DNA of 64,000 nt from Candidatus Sysuiplasma acidicola (GTDB lineage: Archaea; Thermoplasmatota; Thermoplasmata; Sysuiplasmatales; Sysuiplasmataceae). The stretch covers positions 76,020-140,019 of the forward strand of contig JAHEAA010000002.1 of the NCBI GenBank assembly GCA_019721035.1. The letters are read 5' to 3'. Made by a program: the position numbers and the translations under genes. Below, one piece after another: positions 1,710 through 25,232 of this stretch. Each line of letters starts with the position of its first letter. Positions within the stretch are counted from its first letter, which is position 1. The notes beneath the pieces are model-generated. The model did not search any database, was not told where the DNA came from, and saw nothing but the letters and a program-made list of their open reading frames with translations.

Positions 1710-1712
1710 CAT

Positions 1713-2483: not shown

Positions 2484-2486
2484 GCG

Positions 2487-5915: not shown

Positions 5916-5938
5916 GCCTGCAGCGTGATCTGTCTGGC

Positions 5939-6490: not shown

Positions 6491-6493
6491 CTG

Positions 6494-8425: not shown

Positions 8426-8430
8426 TATGG

Positions 8431-9021
8431 ATGATCACTGTCGGCCAGTTTGTTTACGCACTGTTCAGGCCATACGGTGAAAGCGGACTCATATTAGCGC
8501 TGTTCATAATTTTCTTTCTGGATGCTACCTTCTTCCCTACGCTTCCCGAACTGTTTACGGTTGTCATATTCCTAGCCATGCCTACGTCCTCCTTTGCGTT
8601 GCTCATGCTGGCTACGATCAGTGTCGCGGAATTCTCAGGCATAAACAGCCTGTATTACATCGTGAAGCACCATGATCTGCCGCTGTGGATCAAGAGCAAA
8701 ATGATCTCTTATTCAAGGTTCTTCATCGTGAAGGACGAGAAGATAATACTGTTGAACAGGGTTGCGCCTGTGATACCTTTTCTTGGAGCGTTCATAGCAA
8801 CATGCGAGTGGCGCTACGGCCGGAGCATAGCTTACAATTTCATAGGAGGCATCGCAAAGTATGCGCTGATAATACTACTCGCGTCTTTTCTTCTCAGCGT
8901 CTTTTCCAACCAGTTCGAAGCCGAAGTCATAACCATAGTTGCCGTCGGTTTGCTCATAGGCTTCAGCGCATATCTCTCGAACAGGGAAAAGAGAAGACTG
9001 GGCATGGGAGCTGAGAGCTGA
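8431..9021 (+). CDS. DedA/VTT-family-like integral membrane protein
   Basis: Multi-TM 196-aa protein sandwiched between two GT4 genes with 5 and 1 bp spacers. Its topology and size resemble DedA/SNARE-associated proteins. Confidence 0.55.
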   Translation: MITVGQFVYALFRPYGESGLILALFIIFFLDATFFPTLPELFTVVIFLAMPTSSFALLMLATISVAEFSGINSLYYIVKHHDLPLWIKSKMISYSRFFIVKDEKIILLNRVAPVIPFLGAFIATCEWRYGRSIAYNFIGGIAKYALIILLASFLLSVFSNQFEAEVITIVAVGLLIGFSAYLSNREKRRLGMGAES

Positions 9022-9022
9022 T

Positions 9023-10081: not shown

Positions 10082-11031
10082 ACCACGTAGCCGGCTATGC
10101 CGACGCTCTTGCCTGTTGTCGGATTGCTTATGTAGGTTATCGTCACGGTGAAGTCCAGCGTTCTTCCTGTCACCGGCCTGTTGTAATTGAGCGTTAACGT
10201 TCCGTTTGAATTTATGGACCACAGCATGAATTTGCTCCCGTTCTGATCCTGACCACCGAGATTCTTCACCATCTGCTGGGAAACGTCATTGCGCAATGTG
10301 ATCTGACCGAGTCCTCCGTTCGCCGAGCTGTTTATGTCCATAACGGTGACTGGCCAGGCACCGTAACCAGGTTCGGTGCTGGAGTTGAAAGAATATGGAT
10401 ATATGACCATGCCGGCAGAAGGGGTGTACTGATAGACTACAGTGCTGTTCTGGGTGCTCATTATCGTGTCTGTCCAGTGCCAGAATGGATCTCTGAACGT
10501 CATGCCGCTGTATGGCTGCTGGCCGGTTGAAGAGATGAACTGGGTTCTGTTGACTGTGTGCACCATTGTCAGATGCTGAAATATAGGCATATAGGTGAGC
10601 AGTGACATGTTGAGCGGGCCGTATCCCTGGGACGCGGGTATTATCAGGAATTTGGTCTGATTTACATGCATGCCGACAATACCGCTGTCCATGCCGGCAA
10701 CCACCTGACCCGTTCCGACATTGCTTATCTGCAGTGGCGTATATGTGCTGCTGTTTCCCCTCCATGTGAATCCCGGCCCCTTGGGATATGTGGCGTTGTT
10801 CTTGGCAACGGAATAAATGGATGTGTCAAATATTTGTCCGTTGGAATACTGGCCGGTATAGTTCAGATATACGTTGTCGCCGTTCTGAACGGTGAGAGCC
10901 GGCCTGGCTTTTGACGAGACATAATACTGGTATCCAACATAACTGAGAAGGGCCGCGCCGATCAGGAGCATGACTATAACAAAAGCACCCGCCCTCGAAA
11001 TCCTGCCACGTACTGGAGCACCGTCACGCAT
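10051..11031 (-). CDS. Membrane-anchored, secreted FKBP-type peptidyl-prolyl cis-trans isomerase with Asn/Ser/Thr-rich C-terminal domain
   Basis: N-terminal TM anchor (AFVIVMLLIGAALLSYVGY), then FKBP core (VYLNYTGQYSNGQIFDTS...GQVVAGMDSGIVGMHVNQTKFLIIPASQGYG). At least 11 N-x-S/T sequons. It overlaps the 3' end of the GT4 gene by 31 bp, tail to tail. Confidence 0.75.
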   Translation of the reverse strand: MRDGAPVRGRISRAGAFVIVMLLIGAALLSYVGYQYYVSSKARPALTVQNGDNVYLNYTGQYSNGQIFDTSIYSVAKNNATYPKGPGFTWRGNSSTYTPLQISNVGTGQVVAGMDSGIVGMHVNQTKFLIIPASQGYGPLNMSLLTYMPIFQHLTMVHTVNRTQFISSTGQQPYSGMTFRDPFWHWTDTIMSTQNSTVVYQYTPSAGMVIYPYSFNSSTEPGYGAWPVTVMDINSSANGGLGQITLRNDVSQQMVKNLGGQDQNGSKFMLWSINSNGTLTLNYNRPVTGRTLDFTVTITYISNPTTGKSVGIAGYVVYAPVSQREL

Positions 11032-11051
11032 TGCGGACCGATTAAAACATC

Positions 11052-12410
11052 ATGCTAATAAAGCTTCTCCGCAATGGAGCCCCGCGCGGCAAGGGAAAAG
11101 TGGTCTGTTTGGCGAACGTTTTTACGAGCATTCGTGATGTGATTTCTTCCGGAGAAGAAGGAAAGAGTTTCAGCATCAGGGGATGGATTTACAGGACAAG
11201 AAGCAGCGGCTCCATAGTGTTCACTGTCATGAGGGATGCCACTGGCATAGTGCAGTGCACAGTGAAGAAGTCCGGCGTGCCCCCCGAGGATTTTGAGCAG
11301 GCGGCAAAGGCGCTGATTGAGACTTCGGCCGAATGCACGGGCAGTTTGAAGGCGGATGCCAGGGCACCGGGCGGATATGAACTGGTCGCCACATCATTCA
11401 AAGTCATTTCATTCGCCGAACCGTTCCCGATAACCGAAAATCAGAGCGAACCGTTTCTGCTCGACAACCGCCATTTGTGGATCAGGTCACGGGAACAGAC
11501 GGCCATAATGAAGGTGAAGGCGTCGATTCTGCTCGGAGCGAGGGAGTGGTTTACTGAAAACGACTTCTGCGAAGTCACGCCGCCGATACTCACCACGAAT
11601 GCCTGTGAGGGAGGCACCACACTGTTTCCGCTGAAATATTTCGACCAGAATGCGTATCTGAGCCAGAGTGCCCAGATGTACCTCGAGGCGCTGACCTTCA
11701 GCCTGGAGAGAGTTTTTGCCGTGACGCCATCGTTCAGGGCAGAAAAATCCAGGACGCCGAGACATCTGACTGAATACTGGCACCTGGAAGGGGAGGAGGC
11801 TTGGGTGAATAACGAGGGCAACATGCACATACAGGAGGAGCTTGTATCGCATGTTGTCCGCCATGTTCTGCAGAAGAGGAAGGAGGAGCTCGCCGTCCTC
11901 AAACGCAATGTGGAAGACCTGAAGGCTGTTGAGCCGCCGTTCGTGCGGCTCACATACGAAAATGCGCTGAAGATGCTTTCAGAGCGAGGTATGAACGCGA
12001 AATGGGGCGACGACTTTGGAACGGAGGAGGAGAAGATGCTCACTCTGGACAGCGTGAAGCCGGTGTTTGTCACAAACTTCCCGAAAGAGATAAAGGCGTT
12101 TTACATGAAGGAGAATGAGCAGGACAGCAGAACGTACAGCTGCGCTGATCTTATTGCTCCGGAAGGTTTCGGCGAAGTGATCGGCGGCAGCGAGAGGGAA
12201 ACGGATGTGCGGAAGCTGGTCGCGCGCATGGAAGAACAATCCATACCGCTTGAACCTTATGCGTGGTATCTCGACCTCAGGAAATACGGTTCCGTACCAC
12301 ATTCCGGTTTCGGCCTCGGTGTGGAGAGGCTCGTAAAGTGGATATGCAAACTGGATCACATCAGGGACGCAGTGCCCTTCCCGAGGACTCCGTCGAGGAT
12401 ATACCCCTGA
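11052..12410 (+). CDS. asnS: Asparaginyl-tRNA synthetase
   Basis: Class IIb motifs; FRAEKSRTPRHLTEYWHLEGEEAW matches the AsnRS-specific motif 2 region (E. coli [21 protein letters not shown]); GFGLGVERL motif 3. Confidence 0.85.
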   Translation: MLIKLLRNGAPRGKGKVVCLANVFTSIRDVISSGEEGKSFSIRGWIYRTRSSGSIVFTVMRDATGIVQCTVKKSGVPPEDFEQAAKALIETSAECTGSLKADARAPGGYELVATSFKVISFAEPFPITENQSEPFLLDNRHLWIRSREQTAIMKVKASILLGAREWFTENDFCEVTPPILTTNACEGGTTLFPLKYFDQNAYLSQSAQMYLEALTFSLERVFAVTPSFRAEKSRTPRHLTEYWHLEGEEAWVNNEGNMHIQEELVSHVVRHVLQKRKEELAVLKRNVEDLKAVEPPFVRLTYENALKMLSERGMNAKWGDDFGTEEEKMLTLDSVKPVFVTNFPKEIKAFYMKENEQDSRTYSCADLIAPEGFGEVIGGSERETDVRKLVARMEEQSIPLEPYAWYLDLRKYGSVPHSGFGLGVERLVKWICKLDHIRDAVPFPRTPSRIYP

Positions 12411-12416
12411 CAACGG

Positions 12417-13520
12417 TCAGCGCACGAACGGCGGCTTTACGACAACGCCATCTATTGTCCTGCCGCGTATGTCTATGCGTACTTTCGTCGAAACGGGCGG
12501 CACCGGATATGCATATCCCATCGCGACCGGTGTTCCGAGGACAGGCGAAAAACCGCCGCTGGTGACAGTGCCGGTTCCTCCGTCAAAACTGAATCTGTCT
12601 CCATGCCTTGGTATGCTCCTGCCCTCCACCCTTATGCAGATGAGGCGGCTGTATCCGCCTGCCCTCTTCTGCTCCTCCAGCGCTTCTCTGCCAATGAAAT
12701 CATGATCCCACTTGATGACCCAATCATAACCTGTTTCAAGGGTCGACTGCCTGCCGTCGAAATCGGTGCCGGAGAGCAGATACCCTTTCTCCAGTCTGAG
12801 CGAGTCTCTCGCACCCAGACCGGCGGGCACCGTTGCTGCATGATCTGACGAGAGTATGTCGCTCCATATACCGGGGGCATCGGAAGCGTGCGTGAAAAGT
12901 TCAAAACCGTCTTCGCCGGTGTAACCGGTCCTGGAGACGAAGAACGAGGAGTTTTTCAGCCTGTCCATGAAGGGTCCCTGTCCACCGGAAAATGTGCCTG
13001 TGAAACTGCGCAGGGGAACTGAGTCCGGCAGAATAGCGCCGATAGTCTTCACTGCCTCCGGACCCTGCAAAGCGATACAGCACACTTCAGCACTGACGTC
13101 GGAGACGTCACAGCTCACATTATTCACCACCCAGTTCAGTATCTCTTCCGTTCTGGAGGCGTTGGGAACTATGACAAACTCATCGGCCCCAGTCCTGATG
13201 GCAATAGTATCGTCGATTATGATGCCCCTGTCGTCGAGGAAATGTGTATAGGTGCATGAGCCGATTTCGCGACCGGCTATCCTGTTTGTCGACAGTCTAT
13301 CGAGATCGCTCTCGCAGCTCTTTCCGGACAATATGACTTCACCCATGTGCGAGACGTCAAAAAGTCCGGCACTTCTCCTCACATTCATGTGCTCCTCCAG
13401 TATGGAAGTGTAATAGAGGGGCATCTCCCAGCCTGCAAACGGTACGATGTGCCCCCCGAGCCCGACATGCTTTTCAAAAAGAGGGGTCTTCTTCAACGCA
13501 GCTCCTTTATCATCCGTCAC
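12417..13520 (-). CDS. gcvT: Glycine cleavage system T protein (aminomethyltransferase)
   Basis: MPLYYTSILEEHMNVRRSAGLFDVSHMG, the characteristic GcvT N-terminus; 367 aa. Confidence 0.9.
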   Translation of the reverse strand: MTDDKGAALKKTPLFEKHVGLGGHIVPFAGWEMPLYYTSILEEHMNVRRSAGLFDVSHMGEVILSGKSCESDLDRLSTNRIAGREIGSCTYTHFLDDRGIIIDDTIAIRTGADEFVIVPNASRTEEILNWVVNNVSCDVSDVSAEVCCIALQGPEAVKTIGAILPDSVPLRSFTGTFSGGQGPFMDRLKNSSFFVSRTGYTGEDGFELFTHASDAPGIWSDILSSDHAATVPAGLGARDSLRLEKGYLLSGTDFDGRQSTLETGYDWVIKWDHDFIGREALEEQKRAGGYSRLICIRVEGRSIPRHGDRFSFDGGTGTVTSGGFSPVLGTPVAMGYAYPVPPVSTKVRIDIRGRTIDGVVVKPPFVR

Positions 13521-13547
13521 GTGTTCACCGTCCGCACACTGTGCATA

Positions 13548-14708
13548 TTATCTCTTCCTTGATGAAAGCATCTCCTCGAGCCTCATTACCATTATATCCG
13601 CAGGGATGTCAAGGAGAGTAATCATGCCGGTCACACCGGAGGCGCCCCTCTTTTTCGACCTGAGATCTATGAGTCCGAGACCAACAAGCTCCTTCATGTG
13701 AGAATAGAACTGGGTGTGTCCCCTCGGCTTCTCACTGTACTCTTCACATACAATCCTGTAGATGTTTTCAACCTCGGTTGTTTCGGCGTACGCCCTTGTT
13801 CTCAGCAGGCGGGATGCAGAAAGCAGAACAAGCATCTGCTGTCTGCTCAGGCTGGACACTTTTTCTTCTGTCACAAACGAATAAGTTGATGCTTTTGCCG
13901 CGCGCACATCTTCGATCCCTATCTTCTGCGACATGCGTTCGTTTGCCAGCATGCCTGAGTTTTCCAGCAGCTCAAGTGCAAATCTCGCATCACCCCATTC
14001 GCCTGCGCTCTCTGCAATCATATCGAGCAGTTCGTCATCGACGGCACCGCTGACGAGCGCAAGCTCGGCTCTCGCCGACACAATATCGCGGAGCTGCTTC
14101 ACAGTATATTTGCCGAATTCTATCACGTTTGTTCTCTTGAAGGTGGACATGGCGGACATGTCCAGCAATTCGAAGAGGTGCCGTTGTGATATCAGTATAA
14201 GCGAAATCCTGTGCTTGAGCGTGTCGGACTCTTCCGGCAGCCTGCTCAGATAATATACAAGATCGCTTGCACCACTCCTGATCAGTGCATCCACTTCATC
14301 GAGCACGAAAACGCAGTGAGCCTGTTTCTTCTCTATGTGCCTGCGCAGAACCTTCCTCAATTCCTGTGAGGAGAATCCCCTGTCGGGAAAGTTGGGATCG
14401 AAATAATTTATCAGCTTGAGAAGTGTCGAAACTTCGCTGTTCCTCTGCCTGCAGTTAACGATTGTCCATTCTATCTTGCGCCCGGCTTTCGCCGTCCTGA
14501 GCGAAAGGTCTGAACAGAAACTCTTCGACGTTACAGTTTTGCCCGTGCCTATGCTGCCGACCAGCAGTACATTCTGGCTGTACCCTCCCTCCTGCACTGG
14601 TTCGAACATCACCTGGAGCCTGCGCATCTGCTCCTCCCTGTGAGGCAGCTTGTCGGGGATGTAATCGAATGAGAGCTTTCCAATGTCCTTGAAAACACCG
14701 CTAGGCAT
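13548..14708 (-). CDS. cdc6: Orc1/Cdc6 replication initiator (AAA+ plus winged helix)
   Basis: Walker A VLLVGSIGTGKT, Walker B VFVLDEVD, sensor motifs and a C-terminal wH domain. Confidence 0.9.
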   Translation of the reverse strand: MPSGVFKDIGKLSFDYIPDKLPHREEQMRRLQVMFEPVQEGGYSQNVLLVGSIGTGKTVTSKSFCSDLSLRTAKAGRKIEWTIVNCRQRNSEVSTLLKLINYFDPNFPDRGFSSQELRKVLRRHIEKKQAHCVFVLDEVDALIRSGASDLVYYLSRLPEESDTLKHRISLILISQRHLFELLDMSAMSTFKRTNVIEFGKYTVKQLRDIVSARAELALVSGAVDDELLDMIAESAGEWGDARFALELLENSGMLANERMSQKIGIEDVRAAKASTYSFVTEEKVSSLSRQQMLVLLSASRLLRTRAYAETTEVENIYRIVCEEYSEKPRGHTQFYSHMKELVGLGLIDLRSKKRGASGVTGMITLLDIPADIMVMRLEEMLSSRKR

Positions 14709-15257
14709 GGTTTCAGTCTGGACGTTAACAACTGCACTTTAATTAGCTTTGGCGGTAACGACCTTGTCAAGTTTTCATTGATATTCCAATTGCTTCATGA
14801 CTTCTGTGAACGCTCCCCGCTGCAAGCTATCTTGTAGTCAGCAGTTGCAGACAACGACAAGGTTACTGCGGCCGACACTGTTTATGTTATGCGGAATTGG
14901 CATGCTTCGGCGACCTCCCCCTGTCGCCGTTTAAATAGCCTGTAGGAGTGGAATGATGACATGCTGACGGCACGTTATCGGCTCCGTGGCAATGCCCATG
15001 CGGTGCCACATATGATCGCGACAGAACCAGGATGTCTGCCCGTGACCCGGGCAGGAGCAGGAGGCTGATGAGGCAATGAAGCAGTTCAAAGATGCTGAGC
15101 GGAAGCCTTCAAGTCAATGTTTTCAAGGAAAAGTTGACAGAGTCGTAAACATGTTTCAGCCGAACGTGAGGCGTAGAACTGTCAGCAATCATGCTTCCCT
15201 GCCGGTAAACGTGACGCCCGACTTTCAGGCAGAGGTGGCGTCACAGACACCGGCGTT

Positions 15258-16875
15258 GGTAACTGGTCAGTCTTATGAAAAGAGCCTAATGAAAGTGTTG
15301 TTTTCATTGAATTGACCGAAAGTTTTTTCGGGTAGGATCGCCATACACCCCTCTGATGAACCGGATTCTGAACGAAGAATTTGCAGGCAGGATTGAATTC
15401 CTTCTCTCCGCCGATGAGAAGAAGTTGAGACTCTCGCAGGATGCGAGACAGGAACTTCTCAGGAAGTTCCGTGAAATGATCGAGATGATCAGGAAGCTGG
15501 AGAAGGAGAATCAGAGACTCAAGGAGGATCTGAAGAAGGTACGTGACGATTACGAAGAGTACAGGCACCGCCATCCAGAGACAGTCGGCGTGAAGAACGG
15601 CAAGGCATACGCCATACCTGAGAACGCAAAGGATGAAGGCGAAGGCGGGAACGGGACCGGCAGGAAGCCGGGCGCTCAGCCCGGCCACAAACCGTTCTTC
15701 AGGGAAAAGCCGGCACCGGACTGGACGGAGGAACTGCCTGTCGATGTGTGTCCCGACTGCGGAAGCGGCGAACTCGGCGCGCCTTCACTGCGTGCAAGGA
15801 CAGTGGAGGGCATCACACTGCCGGTGCACTTTGCAGTGGAGTATCTCATTCAGCGCAGATGGTGCGGCACATGCCGCACTTTTGTCGAGTCCGATGTGCC
15901 CGATGTACTGCCAGGGTCCAGGATTGACCTGAGGACGATGCTCGTCATGACATACATGCGCATCGCACTCAGGCTTCCGGTGCAGTCCGTCGCAGAGGCG
16001 ATGCAGCGACTCTTCTCATTCCATGTCTCAGAAGGCGAAATCATAGGCGTGGAGAGGAAACTCGCTGACGCGTTCACAGACTACTACGAACAGCTGCTCG
16101 GGGACATACGCAATGCGCCTGTCCGCCACATGGACGAAACCACATGGCGTGTCGACGGCGAGAACAGCTGGTTATGGGCATTCGTCACAAAGTGGACCGT
16201 TGTCTATGCAATAAGGAAGAGCAGGAGTCATGAGGTGCCGCTCAACATACTCGCAGAACATGTTGCCGGCATCAACATCACTGACCGTTACAGGGCATAC
16301 GACACGCTCGCCGCAAAGACGGGCGACCTGCAGTCATACTGCTGGTCGCATGTTCTCGGCGATGCGAAGGAACTGGCGGAGTTCTACGGCGAGGAGGGAA
16401 AGCGCATACACGACACGCTCCATTCCATACATGAAGATGCAGCGAAACTGAAACACATGGGAAATGAATATGATGTCGAGGCATTCGTATCGAGACTGAA
16501 AACACTCGACGTGCCGTACAAATCGGCACAGTGTGCCAGGTTCGTGAAGAACCTCATAGCAGACAGGGAAAAGCTGTTCCTGTTCGTCGAACTGGACATA
16601 GAGAGCACGAACAACCGTGCCGAGAGGGCAATAAGACCGGTTGTCATCTCGAGGAAGATATCTGGAGGCAGCCGCTCAGACAGCGGCGCCACCATGTTCG
16701 AGAAACTCGCGAGTATCGTACAGACGATGAAGCTCAGGGATCTCAATTTCCTCACAGACGGCATGAGAATACTGCGGACATCACACGGGTGAATGCCGCA
16801 ACATACATTCTGACGGCGGGCGGCCGAATAATATTCGGAAACTCATGTCACTGTACACAAGACTGAATAGTTACC
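15258..16875 (+). mobile_element. IS66-family insertion sequence (single-ORF, ISBst12-like group), about 1.6 kb
   Basis: An imperfect 20-bp terminal inverted repeat: GGTAACTGGTCAGTCTTATG at 15258..15277 versus the reverse complement of 16856..16875 (GGTAACTATTCAGTCTTGTG), 17 of 20 matching. It begins GTAA like IS66 TIRs and encloses the transposase ORF. No clean 8-bp TSD was found. Confidence 0.6.
15356..16792 (+). CDS. IS66-family transposase (TnpC-like)
   Basis: N-terminal leucine zipper/coiled coil, CPDCG...CGTC zinc finger, DDE region (HMDETTW, WLWAF, QSYCWSHVLGD), C-terminal TNNRAERAIRPVVISRKISGGSRS signature of IS66 TnpC. Confidence 0.9.
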   Translation: MNRILNEEFAGRIEFLLSADEKKLRLSQDARQELLRKFREMIEMIRKLEKENQRLKEDLKKVRDDYEEYRHRHPETVGVKNGKAYAIPENAKDEGEGGNGTGRKPGAQPGHKPFFREKPAPDWTEELPVDVCPDCGSGELGAPSLRARTVEGITLPVHFAVEYLIQRRWCGTCRTFVESDVPDVLPGSRIDLRTMLVMTYMRIALRLPVQSVAEAMQRLFSFHVSEGEIIGVERKLADAFTDYYEQLLGDIRNAPVRHMDETTWRVDGENSWLWAFVTKWTVVYAIRKSRSHEVPLNILAEHVAGINITDRYRAYDTLAAKTGDLQSYCWSHVLGDAKELAEFYGEEGKRIHDTLHSIHEDAAKLKHMGNEYDVEAFVSRLKTLDVPYKSAQCARFVKNLIADREKLFLFVELDIESTNNRAERAIRPVVISRKISGGSRSDSGATMFEKLASIVQTMKLRDLNFLTDGMRILRTSHG

Positions 16876-16887
16876 GATTGTAAGAAG

Positions 16888-16900
16888 TTATTTATAATAT
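16888..16900 (+). promoter_or_regulatory. TATA-like box (TTATTTATAATAT) just outside the IS right end, upstream of the Lys-rich ORF / rpl15e
   Basis: A/T 13-mer about 26 bp before a predicted TSS near 16921; ATG at 16953. Confidence 0.3.
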
Positions 16901-17309
16901 AGCCAAATTCGAAACCAGTTCAGATTTACAATCGATCATATTGGTGTGCCAGATGAATAAGGAAGAAGAGAAGAAGGGCGCAAAGGAGAAGAAAACAAAG
17001 CAGTCCAGAGCAGCAAAGGACGAGAAAGCAGTTGCGAAACATGCTTCGAAGGAGACGCCTGAAAGGAAGGAGAAGAAGAGCAGGAAGGAGGGGAAGGAGG
17101 TAGTAGCTGCCGAGGCTGTTGAAGCCGAAACGGAGAAAGTCACAAGATCGGAGAAGCCCAAGAAGAAGAGAACACGAAGCAGGAAAGGATCCGGTGCAGC
17201 AGCGAAGTCGGGCAAGCCAACTGTTCCTGCAGAACCCGGCGCTCCTGTTTCACAGCTTGCTCCGGAAATGCCGCCTGCCATGAAATTGAAATATGGCAGT
17301 GGCACGAGC

Positions 17310-17888
17310 ATGTATGCTCACATATCTTCCTATCGCAAGAACAGCTTCAACAAGGCACTCGGCAGGACTGAGTGGGAGAGGCTGATACGCTGGCGCAAAG
17401 AGGAAAATTACAGAACCATTGAACATCCGACAAGACTCGACAGGGCACGCTCCCTCGGCTATAAGGCCAAGCAGGGTGTTACGCTGGTCAGGGTCAGGGT
17501 ACGCAGAGGCGGACTCAGAAAGAGAAGGATAGCCAAGGGGCGCAGGGCGAAGAGAAAGGGTATACTGCGCATCACCATGAAGAAGAATACACAGAGAATG
17601 GCTGAGGAGCGTGTAGGAAAGAGATACCCTAACATGGAAGTTCTCAATTCCTACCCCGTAGGTCAGGACGGCATGCACCGTTGGTTCGAGGTCATACTCG
17701 TCGACCCATACAGCCCGTCTGTTCAGAGCGACAGGCATCTCAACTGGCTTTCAAACCAGACACATTCCAGCAGGGCCTTCCGCGGCCTGACTTCCGCCGG
17801 CAAGAAAGGAAGGGGACTGCGCTGGCGGGGCAAGGGCGTCGAGAAGGTCAGACCTTCCGTAAGGGCCAACGACAGGAAGGGTAAGTAA
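17310..17888 (+). CDS. rpl15e: 50S ribosomal protein L15e. Core protein only; an in-frame Lys/Glu-rich 123-codon ORF extends upstream to 16941.
   Basis: MYAHISSYRKNSFNKALGRTEWERLIRWRKEENYRT...RGLTSAGKKGRGLRWRGKG is canonical L15e (193 aa). The supplied ORF (16941..17888, TTG start) adds a KEEEKKGAKEKKTKQ... extension. A second TATA-like element (AAATTGAAATAT, 17283..17294) lies 26 bp before the 17310 ATG. Confidence 0.85.
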   Translation: MYAHISSYRKNSFNKALGRTEWERLIRWRKEENYRTIEHPTRLDRARSLGYKAKQGVTLVRVRVRRGGLRKRRIAKGRRAKRKGILRITMKKNTQRMAEERVGKRYPNMEVLNSYPVGQDGMHRWFEVILVDPYSPSVQSDRHLNWLSNQTHSSRAFRGLTSAGKKGRGLRWRGKGVEKVRPSVRANDRKGK

Positions 17889-18746
17889 TCAGGATATTCT
17901 GGCGAGCAGAGCAAGGCGCTCGCCTTCGGTCATTCCCGCCGCCGGATAAAAGAATGCGAAATTGGACTTTACCATCGCCGCTGCGTCCGCGATCCTGTCC
18001 ACACTCAACGCAATGCCTGAGCATCGCGCCTGGGCTGCGATCGAAAGCAGTTGTTCCAAACCATTTACAGAGACAATGCTTATTTTTGCATTCCATTTCC
18101 TGATAGGCTCGATGTCATCATCCGTATTTCTGCCTATGACAACGCTGCATCCTCTCCTCATCATCATCCAGGGAATAATGATGTCATCACGCTTTTCCAC
18201 CAGACAGGCGACACTGCCCTGCGTACCCATCGGCAGGCCACCGGGTCCCTGTTCGGAATTCCCGTAGATGTACGCCGCCTTCTCTCTTGCCTCGACGAAC
18301 ACTTCCACGTCCGGATGATCGAGCGAAACACGCAGTTCCATGTCCTCATGGTCTCCGATGATGCGCGATCCTGCTTCTCTGGCGAGTTCCATGCTCGTGT
18401 ACTTCTGTCCGCCTGATCTGCGCGCTCTAACCGCGAATGCACAGCCTCTGTAAAGCAATCCTGACGCATAAGCCGAGACAGCGCTGACCAGTTCATTCAT
18501 ACCCACTGGAGCCTCCACCACTTCACTGAAGGAGGCTATGCCAAAGGTGCGCGAGATGATCTCTCTGCTCCTCTCGGCATTGCCGGATAGAACGTATATT
18601 CTGCCTCTGTCTGAAGAGACGATACATTCCTGCCCGGAGCCTAGGAATGCGTTCTCTATGTTTTCGATGAGTGTGTTGATGAATCTTCTTCGAACCCTTT
18701 CGCTCTTGAGACCTATCTCGGCATATCTGAGCAGGAATAGTGTCAT
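17889..18746 (-). CDS. ThiI-like protein: N-terminal ferredoxin-like/THUMP tRNA-binding domain plus a truncated, degenerate PP-loop domain
   Basis: The YAEIGLKSERVRRRF start is the typical ThiI N-terminus and a THUMP domain follows. GLPMGTQGSVACLVEKRDDIIIPWMMMRRG aligns to the ThiI G-x-x-G-K-vlvLlSGGiDSPVAaylmmkRG region, but SGGIDS is replaced by EKRDDI. The protein ends about 115 aa after this. Confidence 0.75.
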   Translation of the reverse strand: MTLFLLRYAEIGLKSERVRRRFINTLIENIENAFLGSGQECIVSSDRGRIYVLSGNAERSREIISRTFGIASFSEVVEAPVGMNELVSAVSAYASGLLYRGCAFAVRARRSGGQKYTSMELAREAGSRIIGDHEDMELRVSLDHPDVEVFVEAREKAAYIYGNSEQGPGGLPMGTQGSVACLVEKRDDIIIPWMMMRRGCSVVIGRNTDDDIEPIRKWNAKISIVSVNGLEQLLSIAAQARCSGIALSVDRIADAAAMVKSNFAFFYPAAGMTEGERLALLARIS

Positions 18747-20412: not shown

Positions 20413-21636
20413 TCAGAGTCTTGATAATATCTTATTCACTTCGTCCTCAAGAGTCGCGGACCCCGTCCCCCCGTCGCCCGAGCCAAGCTCCGTCAATTCC
20501 GCACGGAGCTCCTCGACACTCTTCTCAAGCTCCTGTCTGATCTGAACAAATATCTCGAGATTTTTGCCGGCCTCCTGTCTAACCGATTCCTTTTCCTTCC
20601 GGATGCTGTCAGTGCCTTCAAATGTGATAGTCAATTCCCTGAGTCTCGTGATTTCATCTTCAAGCGCCTGCTTTCTTTCTCTGGCCTTAAGGACCTTGTT
20701 GTAATCAGTAAGTGCTTCGGAATTATTGTGTATGTAGTTAAGCGCACTCCTGATCAGATCGTTCCCGATTAAACTCAGGGGGTCATCATCCGCCAGTTCA
20801 GCCGTGAATTTGTCCAGTCGTGAAATTGCGACATCCACATCCCACTCAGTCAGCTCTCTGCTTCCAGACTTGACAACACTGCTGGTCATTTCACGTATTC
20901 TCGGCATCACTCTGACAACCGGATCTAGCAACGAGCCTGATGAATGAAGAAAGCTCTTCAGCTTCTCCATGGCCTCCGTCTCCTCTACGATTGCTGAGCG
21001 CAGACTCGATTTAGCCTCGTCCATTGCACGCAGGAGCTCCCGTTTCTTTTCCTCCTGTCTGGCGCCGGCGACCGTTTCAATGTCAAGAAACCCTTCGGGC
21101 TTTGGAATCTTTTGCCTGTATGCCTGCAGCTCATCTGTAAGATCAGCGATCTTCTTTCTGAGATAGAGAATATTCTCGATTTTTCCGTCAATTTCCTCAA
21201 GCCTTTCAAACATTCGCTGCTCTTTTTTGGAAAAACTCGAATAGTTGAAAATCTCCCTGTCCAGTTCGGCGACCGTTTCCTCAATCCGTTCCAATGCAAC
21301 CTGAAGTTGCTTTTTTCTGGCAGGTTCGCAATCCAATTTTAACAGAGGCGGCTTGAGTTTTTCCGATATTTTTGCCGGTTTCATTCTGAGAGCCTCCCTG
21401 AGATCCGGGAATCCGCCATGCCTCAGGAAGAGTTTCATTTGCTTTACGTCCTTGGGGGAGTAATCGCTGAGGAGCAGTTTGTAGAACTGCTGGAGTTGCA
21501 TCACAGCCCTTTTTTGTAAATCTCTTATCGTCTTGTCCGAGCTTTCACTCTTTCTGGCCTCCTCCAGCTTGGTGGTGATGCTCTTCCGGGTCTTCTCCAA
21601 CTTGTCGAAATCATAGGGGATGTCGCTCTCCTGCAT
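20413..21636 (-). CDS. Coiled-coil protein, function unknown (407 aa)
   Basis: Long ORF with heptad-like K/E/L/R-rich composition throughout and no enzymatic motif. Convergent with the MFS gene. Confidence 0.5.
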   Translation of the reverse strand: MQESDIPYDFDKLEKTRKSITTKLEEARKSESSDKTIRDLQKRAVMQLQQFYKLLLSDYSPKDVKQMKLFLRHGGFPDLREALRMKPAKISEKLKPPLLKLDCEPARKKQLQVALERIEETVAELDREIFNYSSFSKKEQRMFERLEEIDGKIENILYLRKKIADLTDELQAYRQKIPKPEGFLDIETVAGARQEEKKRELLRAMDEAKSSLRSAIVEETEAMEKLKSFLHSSGSLLDPVVRVMPRIREMTSSVVKSGSRELTEWDVDVAISRLDKFTAELADDDPLSLIGNDLIRSALNYIHNNSEALTDYNKVLKARERKQALEDEITRLRELTITFEGTDSIRKEKESVRQEAGKNLEIFVQIRQELEKSVEELRAELTELGSGDGGTGSATLEDEVNKILSRL

Positions 21637-21789
21637 CGTTCCGAGTATTCGCTCTTCTACAATTAATGTTTCTTTGCGGATGCCTCATTTGTCTATACAG
21701 CCAGTGTCGGCTGCCATAAGACAACAGTATGCCGGGCCTCAGCGACAGCAAACTTTTAACATTAGGTCGGTTAATCGCCTTAAGTCGAA

Positions 21790-21874
21790 GCAGGGATAAC
21801 CAAGCTTGGCCAAAGGTGCCAGATTCAGGGTCTGGTTGCGCAGGCATTCGGGGGTTCAAATCCTCCTCCCTGCA
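21790..21874 (+). tRNA. tRNA-Leu (anticodon CAG), type II with long variable arm
   Basis: Hand-folded cloverleaf: acceptor GCAGGGA/TCCCTGC, 3-bp D stem ACC/GGT, anticodon stem CCAGA/TCTGG with loop TTCAGGG, long variable arm, T arm GGGGG-TTCAAAT-CCTCC, discriminator A. CCA is not encoded. Confidence 0.8.
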
Positions 21875-21949
21875 CCGTTATTGGTGCTCAAAGTTCAAGT
21901 CATGAAAACGGCGAAGAGTACAGGGACCGGTGCAAAACCAGTGTAACTA

Positions 21950-22702
21950 ATGAGATATGCTGATATGTTCACTATAGAATTCAGGGAATATATTCATGAA
22001 AGAATCCTGGAATTTGCAAAGGCAGACAAACGAATAAGTCAAGCGGCTCTGGTTGGTTCTACCTCAGAAACGCCTGATCGCTGGTCAGATTTGGACATCA
22101 CGTTTGGCGTTTCCTCAAAATCCAACATTGAAGATGTACTGCGGGATTGGACATCGCATTTTGAATTTGTATTCAACGGGGTTTCACTATTCGACATTAC
22201 ATACAAAAGTTCAGTGTATATGGTGTTTATTCTTCCCGGTGGCCTTCAAGTTGATATCTCTTTCACTCCAGAATCCGACTTCGGTCCCCATGGACCCAGG
22301 TTCAGACTGTTATATGGTAATGTGAATAAAAGAATCCTTCACGAGGAGCCAGATCCAAAGCGTATGTTCGGGATGGCTGTACATCATTTACTAAGAACGC
22401 GTGTTTGTCTCGAACGCAGGAAAATTTGGCAGGCGGAATACTGGCTAAGCTCAGCCCGAAACGAACTCTTGTCCATTATCTGCATTAACCACAAATTACC
22501 TTACTCGAATGGAAAAGGATATGATAAACTGCCAAAAGAAGTGGTGGATTCTTTCACTCCAGCCTTTCCAAAATCACTAAACGGGATTGAATTGTGCATG
22601 GCCTTAAAGATTCTGATAGAAAACATCCCTAACAACAAGGAATTTTCACTGTTCTTGACTCAAAGGTTGGAAAACATATTGAAAGAGTTGATATCATCGT
22701 GA
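21950..22702 (+). CDS. Nucleotidyltransferase-domain protein, ANT(6)/Lnu-like (aminoglycoside/lincosamide nucleotidyltransferase fold)
   Basis: LVGSTSETPDRWSDLDITFGV matches the GS-x(n)-[DE]-x-[DE] minimal NTase motif of the KNTase/ANT(6)/Lnu families, followed by an all-helical C-terminal domain. The gene is clearly lower in GC than its neighbours. Confidence 0.6.
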   Translation: MRYADMFTIEFREYIHERILEFAKADKRISQAALVGSTSETPDRWSDLDITFGVSSKSNIEDVLRDWTSHFEFVFNGVSLFDITYKSSVYMVFILPGGLQVDISFTPESDFGPHGPRFRLLYGNVNKRILHEEPDPKRMFGMAVHHLLRTRVCLERRKIWQAEYWLSSARNELLSIICINHKLPYSNGKGYDKLPKEVVDSFTPAFPKSLNGIELCMALKILIENIPNNKEFSLFLTQRLENILKELISS

Positions 22703-22801
22703 GCGGTCACTCTTACACTTTTCCAACTTGAGCAGATATGCTAATAACCGAAATGAAATTTTGATTTGTTAAAAGATGCGAAGATCGGCCGCAAGTTGTA
22801 G

Positions 22802-22886
22802 TGCGGAGGGCCGGATTTGAACCGGCGAACCCCTGCGAGACAAGACCCTCAATCTTGCGCCGTTGACCATGCTTGGCTACCTCCGC
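22802..22886 (-). tRNA. tRNA-Leu (anticodon GAG), type II
   Basis: Reverse strand: acceptor GCGGAGG/CCTCCGC, D stem GCC/GGC, anticodon stem CAAGA/TCTTG with loop TTGAGGG, long variable arm, T arm GCCGG-TTCAAAT-CCGGC, discriminator A. Confidence 0.8.
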
Positions 22887-22997
22887 TCTGCAGGTACGAC
22901 TGGAAAACAGCAGTGGTATTAAGCTTTTATTTACAGGCTTATGTCTGTTCAAAAGCAGGCTGAGTGCAGATTATGGTTGAATAAATCCAAGATGCTT

Positions 22998-23963
22998 TCA
23001 GTTCAAGTGCAGATTCCTGTCTCCTTTTTTTGACCGGAACTGCAAATTTACTATCATATCGGACACCATGCCCGGCATGTCAAATTTCGGGTTAAATCCC
23101 CATTCTCTAACTGCGCATGTTGAGTCGACGGAAGCGGGCCATGAATCGGCAATTTTCTGTCTTCCGTCAGGTGAGTACTTTGTTGTAAAATCGGGAAAAT
23201 GTTTCTGGAGCTCCTTTTCGAGTTCTGCCGGAGTGAAATCGAATGCAGCCACGTTGAAATCTGTTCTATGTGTCAGACCAGAAGCAGGCGCTTCTGCTAT
23301 GTTTACAAGTGATTCTATTGCGTCAGGCATATACATCATTGGAAGCCTGGTGTCATTTTTAAGGAAACATTCATAATTGCGGCTGGAAACAGCTGCTCGT
23401 ATCATCTCTATCGCGTAGTCTGTCGTTCCACCGCCGGGTGCAGTCTTGTAGCTTATTATGCCAGGAAATCTCATGCCTCTGGCGTCAATAAGGCCCCTTC
23501 TGCTGTAATATTCACAGAGTTCCTCGCAGAAAAGCTTCGTTATGCCGTATATCGTCGAGGGCCTGGTGACGGTGTCCACTGGCACATTGTTTTTTGGTGT
23601 CGTGGGTCCGAACACTCCTATTGTGCTAGGCAGAATAAATCGCTCTACGCCGGAATGCATGGCCGCGTCGAGCACGTTTTTTGTACCGATAAGATTGACA
23701 TTGAATGCCAATTCGGGTTGCTCTTCTCCCCTTGCCGAAAGCACTCCCGCGAGATGAAACACAACTGTAGCAGCTGTGTCTGAGAATGTCCTGAAGACCG
23801 ACGGCCTGTCCGTGACGTCGAGGGAAACGAACTCACAGTGAGTGTCAGCAGGCTTTTTTATGTCGGTCGCCACAACGTTTTCACTGCCGTACCGAAGACA
23901 AAGTTCCCTGACGAGCTCGGAACCTATCTGACCGCATGAACCTGTAACAATTATTCGTTTCAT
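22998..23963 (-). CDS. tdh: L-threonine 3-dehydrogenase, SDR/UDP-galactose-4-epimerase-like type
   Basis: Start MKRIIVTGSCGQIGSELV (GxxGxxG); extended-SDR core with YxxxK (YGITKLF). It is divergently paired with kbl, the classical tdh-kbl arrangement. The supplied ORF has 33 extra N-terminal codons. Confidence 0.8.
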   Translation of the reverse strand: MKRIIVTGSCGQIGSELVRELCLRYGSENVVATDIKKPADTHCEFVSLDVTDRPSVFRTFSDTAATVVFHLAGVLSARGEEQPELAFNVNLIGTKNVLDAAMHSGVERFILPSTIGVFGPTTPKNNVPVDTVTRPSTIYGITKLFCEELCEYYSRRGLIDARGMRFPGIISYKTAPGGGTTDYAIEMIRAAVSSRNYECFLKNDTRLPMMYMPDAIESLVNIAEAPASGLTHRTDFNVAAFDFTPAELEKELQKHFPDFTTKYSPDGRQKIADSWPASVDSTCAVREWGFNPKFDMPGMVSDMIVNLQFRSKKGDRNLHLN

Positions 23964-24047
23964 CAAACTCACACGTGCAACAAGAAACAGCCTTGCGGGG
24001 AGTAGCATTGAGAACTTATTTAAGCCTACTTCGGCTACGCAACTGCT

Positions 24048-25232
24048 GTGACAAAAAACCATCCATGGATAGCTGAAGAACTGAAGGGAATCAGGGATGC
24101 CGGACGATACGTACCCATCAGAGCGCTGCAGTCACCGCAGGGAGCATGGGTCACCATCGGCAGGAGAAAATTACTGAATCTCTGCTCAAACAACTATCTT
24201 GGCTATGCCAACCATCCTGAGGTGAAACGCGCCGCGATAGATGCAATCGAAGCGTATGGTGTCGGTGCAGGTGCTGTGAGGAGCATTGCCGGGACGTCGG
24301 AACTTCATGTAATGCTTGAAGAGGAGATTGCGTCGTTTAAACACATGGAGGCAGCACTCGTGTTTCAGGGTGGCCTGCTAGCTAACGCCGGCACCATTCC
24401 TGTTCTGGTCGGCAAGGATGATGTAGTGTTCAGCGAGGAGCTGAACCATGCGAGCATCATCGACGGCGTAAGATTGAGTTCTGCGAAGCGTATTGTTTAC
24501 AGGCATGTGGATGTGGAGGATTTGGGAAGACAGCTGAACCAGCACAGATCAGATGGAAAGAGATCCCTCATCATAACAGACGGTGTGTTCAGCATGGACG
24601 GGGACATTGCGCCGCTCGACAGGATCGCTCAGCAGGGCATGGACTCTGACTCAATGATATATGTTGATGACGCTCACGGGGAAGGTGTTCTGGGAGACCA
24701 CGGTCGTGGCATAGTCGATCATTTCAGCCTTACAGATCGTGTCGATGTGGAAATGGGCACATTTTCAAAGGCAATTGGAAGCATGGGAGGCTTCGTAGCC
24801 GGTTCATCCGAATTGATAGAACTTCTGAGACAGAGATCTCGCCCATTCCTCTTCAGCAGCGCGCTGAATCCCGGGGATGCAGCCGCAGTTCTCAAATCGA
24901 TTCAGCTCATGAAATCAGATGATTCGCCGCTCAGACGCCTTTGGGCTAATTCGGGATCTCTGAAGTCCGGGTTGAGGGCTGCAGGGTATGACACAGGCAA
25001 TAGCAAGACTCCAATCACTCCGGTCATGATAGGGGATGAAAAGAAAACTGTGGAGCTTAGCAGGGTTCTGTATGAGGAGGAATCACTTTTCGCCTCCCCA
25101 ATTGTGTATCCGACAGTCGCGCCCGGGGCTGCAAGAATCAGACTGATGCCGTCTTCTGTTCACAGCGACGATGACATCAGATTTGCGATTGATGCGTTCC
25201 GCGCAGCAGGCTCAAAGCTTGGACTTGTCTGA
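24048..25232 (+). CDS. kbl: 2-amino-3-ketobutyrate CoA ligase (glycine C-acetyltransferase), alpha-oxoamine synthase family
   Basis: PLP-dependent AONS-family motifs (NNYLGYANHPEV, DDAHGEGVLGDHGRG, GTFSKAIGSMGGF) plus tdh adjacency. Confidence 0.85.
   Translation: MTKNHPWIAEELKGIRDAGRYVPIRALQSPQGAWVTIGRRKLLNLCSNNYLGYANHPEVKRAAIDAIEAYGVGAGAVRSIAGTSELHVMLEEEIASFKHMEAALVFQGGLLANAGTIPVLVGKDDVVFSEELNHASIIDGVRLSSAKRIVYRHVDVEDLGRQLNQHRSDGKRSLIITDGVFSMDGDIAPLDRIAQQGMDSDSMIYVDDAHGEGVLGDHGRGIVDHFSLTDRVDVEMGTFSKAIGSMGGFVAGSSELIELLRQRSRPFLFSSALNPGDAAAVLKSIQLMKSDDSPLRRLWANSGSLKSGLRAAGYDTGNSKTPITPVMIGDEKKTVELSRVLYEEESLFASPIVYPTVAPGAARIRLMPSSVHSDDDIRFAIDAFRAAGSKLGLV

Follow-up and report, generated by a model that had tools for sequence, protein, structure and literature searches.

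The gene for ribosomal protein L15e (rpl15e) lies on the forward strand of the window (the whole 64,000-nucleotide stretch of DNA that was analysed, from Candidatus Sysuiplasma acidicola). It is in an open reading frame that begins with a TTG at 16941, ends at 17888, and encodes 315 amino acids. The earliest ATG in this frame is at 16953, which gives a protein of 311 amino acids and is 119 codons before the ATG of the L15e core at 17310. The first-pass annotation had reported that the frame stays open for 369 nt (123 codons) upstream of 17310 and is fused to L15e, and this is exactly what we find if we count from the TTG. The gene is single-copy and is in conserved synteny: the order of PolB, rpl15e, the convergent THUMP gene, and an MFS gene is kept in relatives. 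The features of the locus are listed in Table 1.

Upstream of rpl15e is an IS66-family element, whose right end is 13 nt from the TATA box of rpl15e; the conserved promoter block is intact. According to blastn, identity to a 99% identical relative (L081) begins at 16875 and everything upstream of that position is non-syntenic. The left junction of the element gave no alignment to L081.

Table 1. Features of the rpl15e locus (positions are those of the window; residues are numbered from the ATG at 16953)
Feature	Position	Strand	Basis or remarks
IS66-family insertion sequence	15258..16875	+	Imperfect 25-nt terminal inverted repeats; transposase match
IS66 transposase	15356..16792		Within the insertion sequence; DDE_Tnp_IS66 match
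Predicted archaeal core promoter of rpl15e: BRE-like purine-rich GTAAGAAG, then TATA box TTATTTATAATATA	16880..16901	+	Conservation
Predicted 5' UTR, ~32 nt	16921..16952	+	Standard archaeal TATA-to-TSS spacing
Shine-Dalgarno-like GGTG, 6 nt before the ATG	16943..16946	+	Present in every relative
Start codon (ATG) of the long L15e	16953..16955	+	First ATG of the ORF; ATG in 10/10 loci
N-terminal extension, residues 1-119	16953..17309	+	Lys/Glu/Ala/Pro-rich; predicted intrinsically disordered; net charge +15
Basic block 1, KKGAKEKKTKQSRAAK, residues 7-22	16971..17018	+	Positive block at an equal relative position in 16/16 extended sequences
Acidic block, EVVAAEAVEAETE, residues 49-61	17097..17135	+	Negative block between the basic blocks
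Basic block 2, KPKKKRTRSRK, residues 68-78	17154..17186	+	NLS-like; charge profile, +8 in 20 aa
Linker, Pro/Ala-rich and near-neutral, residues 79-105	17187..17267	+	Composition, charge profile
Conserved junction motif, MPPAMKLKYGSGTS, residues 106-119	17268..17309	+	Alignment; spans the second "TATA" (17283-17294)
Canonical L15e (eL15) core, residues 120-311	17310..17885	+	Pfam, phmmer, dN/dS
Stop codon (TAA)	17886..17888	+	Directly adjoins the stop of the THUMP/ThiI-like gene
THUMP/ThiI-like gene	17889..18746	-	Convergent with rpl15e

The core belongs to the L15e family by both its profile match and its similarity to solved chains. It matches the entire Pfam model for this family (Ribosomal_L15e or PF00827, model positions 1-191 of 191) over residues 119-306, with a score of 236 bits (the curated cut-off is 27 bits) and an E-value of 3.3e-70. 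Also, phmmer aligned residues 118/119-311 with positions 3-196 of solved ribosomal chains (E = 1.6e-63 for 9l94_G and 2e-61 for 1jj2_L). The core is very basic (pI 11.7, net charge +36). As in canonical archaeal eL15 (Haloarcula marismortui, 1JJ2 chain L; Thermococcus/Pyrococcus, 4V6U and 6SKF), it is a full-length, high-scoring eL15 domain, and it is under strong purifying selection. However, a canonical L15e has about 190-205 amino acids and begins with (M)A-R/K-S-x-Y-x-Y/H-I, while this protein has 311 amino acids, and 119 residues precede the position of that motif. The solved archaeal chains have 169-196 amino acids, align from residue 118 of our protein onwards, and include none with such a tail; the 119 extra residues are predicted to be disordered and increase the mass by about 60%. 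The excess size is a departure in architecture, not in the family membership of the core. The first-pass annotation began the core at 17310, which is slightly off, as the solved chains place the canonical N-terminus about 3-4 residues further upstream.

The tail is Lys/Glu-rich and basic, and is encoded by a purine-rich tract (A 0.36, G 0.33, T 0.11), as had been described at first pass. AlphaFold's confidence is low throughout residues 1-103 (pLDDT under 50), with no secondary structure. We did not find any Pfam domain in the tail, either with the full protein at E ≤ 0.01 or with three of the tails at E ≤ 10, which gave noise alone. A tandem-repeat search of the tract found just one 9-nt unit that is repeated twice, so the tract is not an expansion of the microsatellite type. 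Peptides predicted from the tail include VVAAEAVEAETE and PTVPAEPGAPVSQLAPEMPPAM.

The pattern of charges in the tail is shared with relatives. An acidic cap (MNKEEE) precedes basic block 1, and distant relatives carry MTEEEIKEAKPKRxRKTTTRK at the position of that block. Of the 16 extended sequences, 15 have an acidic block between the basic blocks (the acidic patch of P0017 sits earlier), and the counterpart of basic block 2 in distant relatives is KKPRAxRxxRK. The linker varies in length among relatives and tends to be acidic and Pro/Ala-rich. The junction motif has the consensus P-[PLSA]-h-h-K-L-K-Y-x-x-G-x-S (or, in another form, PP-h-h-K-L-K-Y-x-x-G-x-S); the alignment shows no variation at L112, G117, and S119 and almost none at P108. 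Relatives differ at synonymous sites of the motif but keep its amino acids, and the GxS of the motif corresponds in the alignment to the A-R-S at the canonical N-terminus of solved L15e.

We assign the start of translation to the ATG at 16953, because the TTG at 16941 is not conserved (L083 has TCG) and because L087 has an in-frame TAA between a GTG and the ATG. The first-pass annotation had marked a TATA box upstream of the extension, and this box (16888-16901) is real and conserved. Specifically, we compared the promoter block across L081, L089, L082, L001, L083, L085/86, L087/88, and L091. This block, AAGTTATTTATAATATAG (16885-16902 in the window) with a looser (C/G)CAAATTCGAA behind it, is near-identical among these relatives and is at an equal distance from the long ATG, even between lineages whose tail proteins barely align. 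Given the archaeal TATA consensus, we infer that this block acts as a promoter. The standard archaeal distance from a TATA box to the transcription start would place the start at about 16921 (± 3), or 26-27 nt downstream of the TATA centre. In every relative, GGTG is found at -10 to -7, in the context GGTGTGCCAG-ATG; GGTG is complementary to the 3' end of archaeal 16S rRNA. The combination of promoter, Shine-Dalgarno sequence, and ATG upstream of the long start is conserved across 10 loci, including the sister lineage L091, whose tail has 33 amino acids. A scan of 16700-17400 with Rfam did not identify a leader or any other RNA family, and the count of the promoter motif elsewhere in the 64-kb window is not above chance, so this count has no bearing on a general consensus for strong promoters.

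The first-pass annotation also suggested that the ORF might have arisen by chance in low-complexity DNA. If so, the tract would be untranslated (a long 5' UTR or a spacer), the longer gene model would be an annotation artefact, and the protein would start at 17310. A T-poor, purine-rich composition does reduce the frequency of stop codons by itself: the probability of a stop-free frame per genome was 0.008-0.026 from mononucleotide shuffles and 0.03-0.11 from dinucleotide-like shuffles, so an open frame of 119 codons has 1-10% odds in any one genome. Also, the antisense frame is open in the window, as had been noticed (16892..17311, 139 amino acids). And a search for homologs of the tail alone found just 32 candidates that share words with it, none of them significant; but this search is uninformative, as it missed even the 99% identical relative, probably because of how low-complexity sequence is handled.

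Comparison with relatives argues strongly against a chance ORF. In 8 of 8 loci compared as DNA, the tail has no stops in the frame that continues into the core, even though the tract varies from 315 to 366 nt and synonymous sites are saturated between lineages. The other sense frames have 1-10 stops. The antisense frame has five stops in L082 and in L001 and one in L083, so it is not conserved, and we view the antisense ORF as a by-product of the T-poor sense strand. Codon-position periodicity, which had been proposed as a check, is clear in the tail (position 1 is 81% purine and position 2 is 74% A or C). At moderate divergence, dN/dS is 0.09-0.29 for the tail and 0.03-0.07 for the core, and dN for the tail is about 5-12 times that of the core. 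For the two closest pairs, dN/dS of the tail is 0.68-0.85, which is near 1 as would be expected for a chance ORF, but is based on few substitutions (4 and 27 changes). These values imply that the tail is nearly free to change in its exact sequence, and what is constrained may be no more than its frame, length, and composition. The conservation of the junction motif and of the charge blocks, the promoter and Shine-Dalgarno sequence directly upstream of the long ATG, and the nine protein clusters whose core has no start codon are also at odds with an untranslated tract. The tail has the properties of a translated coding sequence (a conserved frame, conserved start signals, a conserved amino-acid pattern, and dN/dS below 1), and the comparative sequence data establish it as conserved coding sequence that is kept in frame under weak purifying selection. 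We consider it very likely that the extension is translated and the probability that the ORF is an accident to be nearly negligible, and we reject this suggestion of the first-pass annotation on the basis of frame conservation, dN/dS, and the shuffles.

A different question is whether a core-only L15e is made as well, from the ATG at 17310, through internal initiation or an internal promoter at 17283-17294. Tailed and tail-less ribosomes would then coexist in the cell. This ATG does have an A/T-rich dodecamer (aaattgaaatat) 26 nt upstream, which had been considered a possible second TATA box, and the Met is retained at this position in the lineage of the window and in its nearer relatives L081, L089, L082, L001, and L083. 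Furthermore, for a related cluster, NCBI's annotation selected the internal Met (OGS52830.1, 193 amino acids, versus 245 amino acids for JGI's); more broadly, pipelines are inconsistent in how they annotate the start codons of these L15e genes. But the dodecamer encodes K-L-K-Y of the junction motif, and the versions in relatives (aaactgagctac, aaactcgagtcc, aagctgaagtac, and tcactcaaatac) differ at synonymous positions. In other words, the putative second TATA box exists as sequence, but it drifts at synonymous sites and is not conserved as DNA. There is no Shine-Dalgarno-like GGTG or GGAGG within 15 nt upstream of 17310. The core ATG is replaced by TCA in L085 and by GCA in L087, and Met120 is Ala or Ser in nine protein clusters, while Tyr121 is invariant and there is no other conserved Met close by. 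Finally, the counterpart of M120 in solved archaeal L15e chains is residue 4-5 and not their start. Thus, rpl15e has neither the conserved internal start nor the separate promoter or ribosome-binding site that would mark an alternative start, and we consider a second, core-only product to be very unlikely. Among the options at first pass (the long form, the core only, or both), comparison with relatives favours the long form and speaks against the core-only protein, and the long form is probably the sole product.

Extended L15e proteins are not limited to the window. We found 16 protein clusters from relatives, of 292-315 amino acids, that carry an extension of 100-122 amino acids. The first-pass annotation had pointed out that close relatives without the extension would count against it; all of the close relatives are extended, within that same range. 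Many other L15e from Thermoplasmata and from metagenome-assembled genomes (MAGs) of Methanomassiliicoccales have shorter tails, of 20-97 amino acids. The shorter tails (in Methanomassiliicoccales and in unclassified Thermoplasmata MAGs) are at the same position and are of similar low complexity, either Lys/Glu/Ala/Pro-rich or acidic, but neither the PP-h-h-KLKY junction motif nor the pattern of two basic blocks is present in them. Two of these shorter-tailed genes (L012 and L018) have their own Shine-Dalgarno-led start upstream of the tail. In Thermoplasmatales, Poseidoniales, and Halobacteria, L15e has the canonical start and no tail. In a profile search of 1.84 billion cluster representatives, P0013 alone covers the tail part of the profile. 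We sampled the other long matches (264-487 amino acids) as potential tailed archaeal L15e, and these are eukaryotic eL15 with mispredicted gene models. Similarly, tblastn matches in Halobacteria that seem to reach into the tail come from high-GC DNA whose frames stay open upstream of the gene; the genes themselves start with the canonical MARSFYSHI. Across the sequences we searched, only one narrow clade of uncultured Thermoplasmata has the tail of about 120 residues.

The sister lineage with the 33-aa tail (L091) has the same promoter, Shine-Dalgarno, and ATG architecture as the gene in the window, so the tail grew by in-frame expansion, within an ORF that kept its promoter, Shine-Dalgarno sequence, and ATG fixed. 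We reject fusion with an upstream gene as the origin of the tail: whether the tail is long or has 33 amino acids, the next gene upstream is PolB, and promoter and ATG do not differ. Sister lineages share this promoter and start codon and have tails of intermediate length, which gives a natural series for studying how such extensions arise (through in-frame growth of low-complexity sequence) and act.

We judge the long L15e tail to be a variant of the ribosomal-protein extension, which is a kind of feature that is already known. Eukaryotic ribosomal-protein extensions are likewise basic or mixed-charge and largely disordered tails on a conserved core. For example, the N-terminus of eL15 from Trypanosoma (4V8M chain BQ, 221 amino acids) is about 17 amino acids longer. 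The tail in the window is far longer than any extension of eL15 among the solved structures; and the added contacts of eukaryotic eL15 are tied to rRNA expansion segments and extra proteins, while the host here is an archaeon. As a general idea, the tails of ribosomal proteins contact rRNA or neighbouring proteins (PMC9932298, PMC11764897).

Other similarities are compositional. The KKE/D disordered domains of snoRNP proteins (Nop56, Nop58, and dyskerin; PMC11528048) and the C-terminal tails of histone H1 are also Lys/Glu-rich polyampholytes on RNA- or DNA-associated proteins, but they are not homologous to the L15e tail, so we treat the resemblance as a lead and not as membership. The first-pass description of the tail as histone-H1-like holds for composition only: the scan of three tails matched no linker-histone or other Pfam domain even at E ≤ 10, and there is no folded element within residues 1-103 in the AlphaFold model. 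The winged-helix globular domain with Lys-rich tails that characterizes linker histones H1/H5 is not found in the L15e tail. Basic motifs of the NLS type were described in archaeal uL3, uL15, uL18, and uS12 (Melnikov et al., bioRxiv 10.1101/671966). Basic block 2 resembles a classical monopartite NLS-type cluster, as those motifs do. However, the motifs of Melnikov et al. are inside conserved parts and occur across Archaea, whereas ours is in a clade-specific disordered tail of eL15, which is not listed in that study (bioRxiv 10.1101/671966).

We propose, with moderate confidence, that rpl15e is monocistronic and yields one product of 311 amino acids, with an eL15 fold and a disordered tail on the 50S subunit, and that this tail has an electrostatic role in RNA binding or assembly. 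The gene would be transcribed from its own BRE/TATA promoter and translated from the ATG at 16953, after a short 5' UTR with a Shine-Dalgarno sequence, into a single protein. From its N-terminus, this polyampholyte would present the acidic cap, basic block 1, the acidic block, basic block 2, the Pro/Ala linker, and the junction motif, and then the normal L15e N-terminus. The tail would stay on the assembled subunit, flexible and exposed to the solvent; because many lineages tolerate tails of 20-120 amino acids, we infer that the N-terminus of L15e has a path to the solvent. The two basic patches might bind the surface of the rRNA or other RNA electrostatically, and the acidic blocks might buffer the very basic core before and during assembly. 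The tail would then act in the manner of lineage-specific tails on ribosomal proteins of eukaryotes and some bacteria, with selection acting on the charge pattern and the length instead of the exact sequence. It is composition and analogy that suggest the RNA-binding or assembly role, which we view as probable.

The tail could also be removed after translation. It might be a cis-acting pro-region, that is, a built-in chaperone or solubility shield before or during assembly that is then clipped, so that mature ribosomes contain L15e of normal size. The acidic blocks of the polyampholyte beside such a basic core are consistent with this, as is the conserved junction motif just before the canonical N-terminus, which could be a processing site; and all of the solved archaeal L15e chains begin at the canonical N-terminus. 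However, no protease site or partner is known, and the GxS of the junction motif falls on residues of the canonical N-terminus, and solved ribosomes show these residues as ordered. An N-terminal propeptide is known for bL27 in Firmicutes, but processed pro-regions of prokaryotic ribosomal proteins are rare and short. We consider a clipped tail to be unlikely.

A moonlighting role seems highly improbable. An H1-like or KKE/D-like tail might allow L15e, whether ribosome-bound or free, to bind nucleoid DNA, tether ribosomes, or drive condensates, and the Lys-rich mixed charge and the NLS-like KPKKKRTRSRK do resemble linker-histone tails and nucleolar KKE/D disordered regions (PMC11528048). But this likeness is only compositional, the tail has no globular H1 domain or other DNA-binding domain, and the neighbouring genes give no hint of chromatin.

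A more speculative variant of the ribosome-bound tail is a polyampholyte "tentacle" that is anchored on the ribosome and has a eukaryote- or nucleolus-like property, such as charge-driven clustering of ribosomes or pre-ribosomes, tethering to the nucleoid or to mRNA, or replacement of a lost rRNA or protein element. We consider this distinctly unlikely; if it were true, it would be an independent archaeal invention of a KKE/D-type disordered region in ribosome biogenesis.

Returning to the single tailed product, ribosomal proteins with long disordered tails are considered characteristic of eukaryotes, and archaeal ribosomal proteins are usually compact. It is unusual that an archaeal clade has enlarged a core protein of the large subunit by about 60% with a conserved, charged disordered region, and we did not find any description of an N-terminally extended archaeal L15e in the literature. 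The significance is moderate, as the clade is narrow and uncultured. Truncated gene models for L15e would conceal the tail in comparative studies of ribosomes. Within the 64-kb window, the L15e tail is the only Lys-rich charged low-complexity stretch; two weaker matches resemble helical or coiled-coil segments.

The ribosomal protein L15e (eL15) of Candidatus Sysuiplasma acidicola carries a clade-specific, unusually long disordered extension at its N-terminus (hereafter, the tail), and this is a real feature of the archaeal protein. The tail is encoded in frame with a complete L15e/eL15 domain, which makes up the C-terminal 192 residues of the open reading frame. By sequence, this core is an ordinary eL15 family member (Pfam PF00827, E = 3.3e-70, profile positions 1-191 of 191; solved archaeal eL15 chains by phmmer, E = 1.6e-63 to 2e-61). 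The first-pass annotation gave the extension 123 codons, which is correct if counted from the TTG at which the frame opens. It also had the core begin at the ATG at 17310, but this methionine (M120) aligns with residue 4-5 of the solved chains, and the canonical L15e N-terminus corresponds to about G116-T118. The first ATG of the frame lies 119 codons upstream of M120 (Table). Two other possible starts were rejected: the TTG is replaced by TCG in a relative (L083), and in another relative (L087) an in-frame TAA separates an upstream GTG from the ATG.

Table. Features in and around rpl15e (window coordinates) and the ordered charge blocks of the tail.
Feature	Position	Strand	Details
Orc1/Cdc6 gene	13548-14708	-	
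Orc1/Cdc6 gene to IS	13548-15257		includes ~550 nt intergenic region
IS66-family element	15258-16875		1,618 bp; 25-nt imperfect terminal inverted repeats (GGTAACTGG... and ...AGTTACC)
IS66-family transposase	15356-16792		single, 478 aa
Promoter block	16885-16902		AAGTTATTTATAATATAG
Antisense ORF	16892-17311	-	139 aa
rpl15e ORF from TTG	16941-17888	+	315 aa
First ATG (long form)	16953	+	311 aa
Proposed second TATA box	17283-17294		aaattgaaatat
ATG of M120	17310	+	
407-aa ORF	20413-21636	-	no Pfam match
No match in L081	21264-22122		
tRNA-Leu	21790-21876	+	
Inverted relative to L081	22123-24768		
tRNA-Leu	22801-22886	-	
Tail block 1			acidic cap
Tail block 2			basic block 1, KKGAKEKKTKQSRAAK; KPKRxRKTTTRK in distant relatives
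Tail block 3			acidic block, EVVAAEAVEAETE
Tail block 4			basic block 2, KPKKKRTRSRK
Tail block 5			Pro/Ala-rich linker
Tail block 6			conserved junction P-[PLSA]-h-h-K-L-K-Y-x-x-G-x-S

The possibility had been raised that the extension is a chance ORF in purine-rich DNA whose antisense frame is also open. The tract is indeed rich in purines and poor in T (A 0.36, G 0.33, T 0.11), and the antisense ORF does exist in the window, but it is not conserved (5 stops in L082 and L001, 1 in L083) and follows from the scarcity of T in the sense strand. In a homologue search over 5.8 billion proteins, we found 16 clusters (292-315 aa) that share an N-terminal extension of 100-122 aa and whose cores are 60-99% identical to that of the window. 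We compared the DNA of eight loci (the window and its relatives L081, L089, L082, L001, L083, L085, and L087). The frame in phase with the core is free of stops over 315-366 nt in all eight, and the remaining two sense frames contain 1-10 stops. In shuffled sequences, a stop-free frame arose with a probability per genome of 0.008-0.026 (mononucleotide) or 0.03-0.11 (dinucleotide-like). As synonymous sites are saturated between lineages (core dS 0.8-2.9), the joint probability is negligible. Codon periodicity is present, with one pattern shared by all lineages (~80% purine at position 1, ~74% A/C at position 2, and G-rich at position 3). We therefore reject a chance ORF, to which we give almost no weight.

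At moderate divergence, dN/dS (Nei-Gojobori) is 0.09-0.29 in the tail versus 0.03-0.07 in the core, and the dN of the tail is ~5-12 times the core value. For two very close pairs, the tail's dN/dS is 0.85 (window and L081, 4 substitutions) and 0.68 (L082 and L001, 27 substitutions), so its exact sequence is weakly constrained.

The first-pass annotation allowed for a long form, a core-only form, or both, with a second TATA box just upstream of M120. The long form stands. Its promoter block is followed by a looser (C/G)CAAATTCGAA, within 110 nt upstream of the first ATG. All loci share this block almost letter for letter, even L083, L085/86, and L087/88, where the tail can hardly be aligned with that of the window. 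Every locus also has a GGTG ribosome-binding site at -10 to -7 (context GGTGTGCCAG-ATG). Even in a sister lineage (L091, protein P0019) with a tail of just 33 aa, the promoter, ribosome-binding site, and ATG are as in the long-tail loci. From the usual archaeal spacing between TATA box and transcription start, transcripts would begin near 16921, with a 5' UTR of ~32 nt. As for the second TATA box, it consists of the codons for K-L-K-Y; relatives conserve these amino acids but not the DNA (aaactgagctac, aaactcgagtcc, aagctgaagtac, tcactcaaatac). The ATG of M120 is replaced by TCA in L085 and by GCA in L087, and nine clusters (P0008-P0015 and P0017) have Ala or Ser at position 120. A start downstream of M120 would lose a conserved residue, as Tyr121 is invariant in 24 of 24 aligned L15e sequences. 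We infer a single long product from one promoter and one start codon. The long form is very probably the main translated product, a core-only form is unlikely, and dual isoforms are improbable.

The tail is a conserved disordered polyampholyte joined to eL15. In an AlphaFold2 model (24-sequence alignment), residues 1-103 have pLDDT below 50 and no secondary structure, and the core folds as expected. The tail has no Pfam domain (even at E ≤ 10) and no match to an Rfam family, and its only tandem repeat is a 9-nt unit present in two copies. With 33 Lys+Arg and 18 Asp+Glu, its net charge is +15. The charge blocks follow largely one order in the 16 extended sequences, from which individual lineages depart somewhat. 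Within the junction motif, L112, G117, and S119 never vary and P108 hardly does. No other stretch of the 64-kb window is Lys-rich, charged, and of low complexity; two weaker matches resemble helical or coiled-coil segments.

We suggest that the tail probably stays attached to the 50S subunit, from whose surface it would extend flexibly. Electrostatic binding of rRNA or other RNA would fall to the basic patches, and during assembly the acidic blocks may screen the core, which is very basic (pI 11.7). The traits under selection would then be the tail's length, its pattern of charges, and the junction motif. A ribosome-surface, RNA-binding, or assembly role is our leading but tentative reading. 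That the tail is a pro-region, cleaved from the core, seems unlikely to us. The tail resembles histone H1 tails, KKE/D nucleolar disordered regions (PMC11528048), and NLS-type basic motifs (bioRxiv 10.1101/671966) in composition, but it is not homologous to any of these, and we consider a moonlighting H1- or KKE/D-like role very doubtful. By functional analogy, and again without homology, it may be likened to lineage-specific tails of ribosomal proteins (PMC9932298, PMC11764897). No solved structure offers a counterpart of the tail: in the PDB, archaeal eL15 chains measure 169-196 aa, and the longest eL15 N-terminus belongs to Trypanosoma (4v8m_BQ, 221 aa), with ~17 extra residues.

We built a profile from the extended proteins and ran it against 1.84 billion representatives clustered at 50% identity. 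Just one of them (P0013) covered the tail and all other hits matched the core only, so the long tail is restricted to a single narrow clade of uncultured Thermoplasmata (GTDB representative "Thermoplasmata archaeon WH2.bin25"). Those long matches that we sampled proved to be eukaryotic eL15 with mispredicted gene models. Nearly all of the closest 104 scorable L15e proteins have 11-121 aa of extra N-terminal sequence, including Lys/Glu-rich tails of ~70-97 aa (P0094, P0107, P0120) and 45-aa Lys/Glu/Ser-rich tails with their own ribosome-binding site (L012, L018). Tails are absent from Thermoplasmatales, Poseidoniales, and Halobacteria, whose L15e begins at the canonical start. Gene order around rpl15e is conserved (PolB, rpl15e, convergent THUMP gene, MFS gene). 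Long-tail and 33-aa-tail lineages alike have PolB as the immediate upstream neighbour, which rules out fusion with an upstream gene. Instead, the tail grew in frame, by expansion of the stretch that separates the core from a start codon that stayed fixed. The rpl15e tails are a neat system for how ribosomal-protein tails evolve.

In the 45-aa-tail lineage (L012 and L018, ~3753-3862), rpl15e has a longer 5' UTR, with a TATA box at about -105 and a conserved hairpin-like ggccagacc...ggtctcg upstream of a GTGATT Shine-Dalgarno sequence; this may be a regulatory leader.

Our full-text literature search found no description of an N-terminally extended archaeal L15e. Long gene models are already in databases (JGI name "large subunit ribosomal protein L15e"). 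In the Thermoplasmata-related cluster P0072, the annotated start depends on the pipeline: NCBI's OGS52830.1 has 193 aa (from an internal Met), and JGI entries in the same 90% cluster have 245-249 aa.

The IS66 element stops 13 nt short of the rpl15e TATA box, without disrupting the conserved promoter block, and shows no visible target-site duplication. Where the window has the element, the relative L081 (99% identical) has PolB, and the window upstream of 16875 is wholly non-syntenic with L081 (window 1-16874 versus L081 1-5934). The genes left of the element (Orc1/Cdc6, AspRS, ThrRS, and others) are unrelated to what lies there in relatives, all of which carry PolB immediately upstream of rpl15e. 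The difference suggests either a rearrangement associated with the IS or a join made there in the assembly. The intergenic region next to Orc1/Cdc6 is a candidate replication-origin region.

The spacer between PolB and rpl15e is an insertion hotspot (L085 2472-3827, L087 1373-3902), with small unknown ORFs, including a DUF2080 protein, in relatives and the IS in the window; the promoter block is kept despite each insertion. Downstream, window 21264-24768, compared with L081 10305-12948, contains an inversion, and two tRNA-Leu genes lie in or near this stretch. In L081 the breakpoint has produced a chimeric gene of 516 aa in place of the 407-aa gene seen in the window and in other relatives. 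The 407-aa ORF of the window has syntenic counterparts after the MFS transporter gene in L082 and L083/84 (407 aa, with no Pfam match on record).
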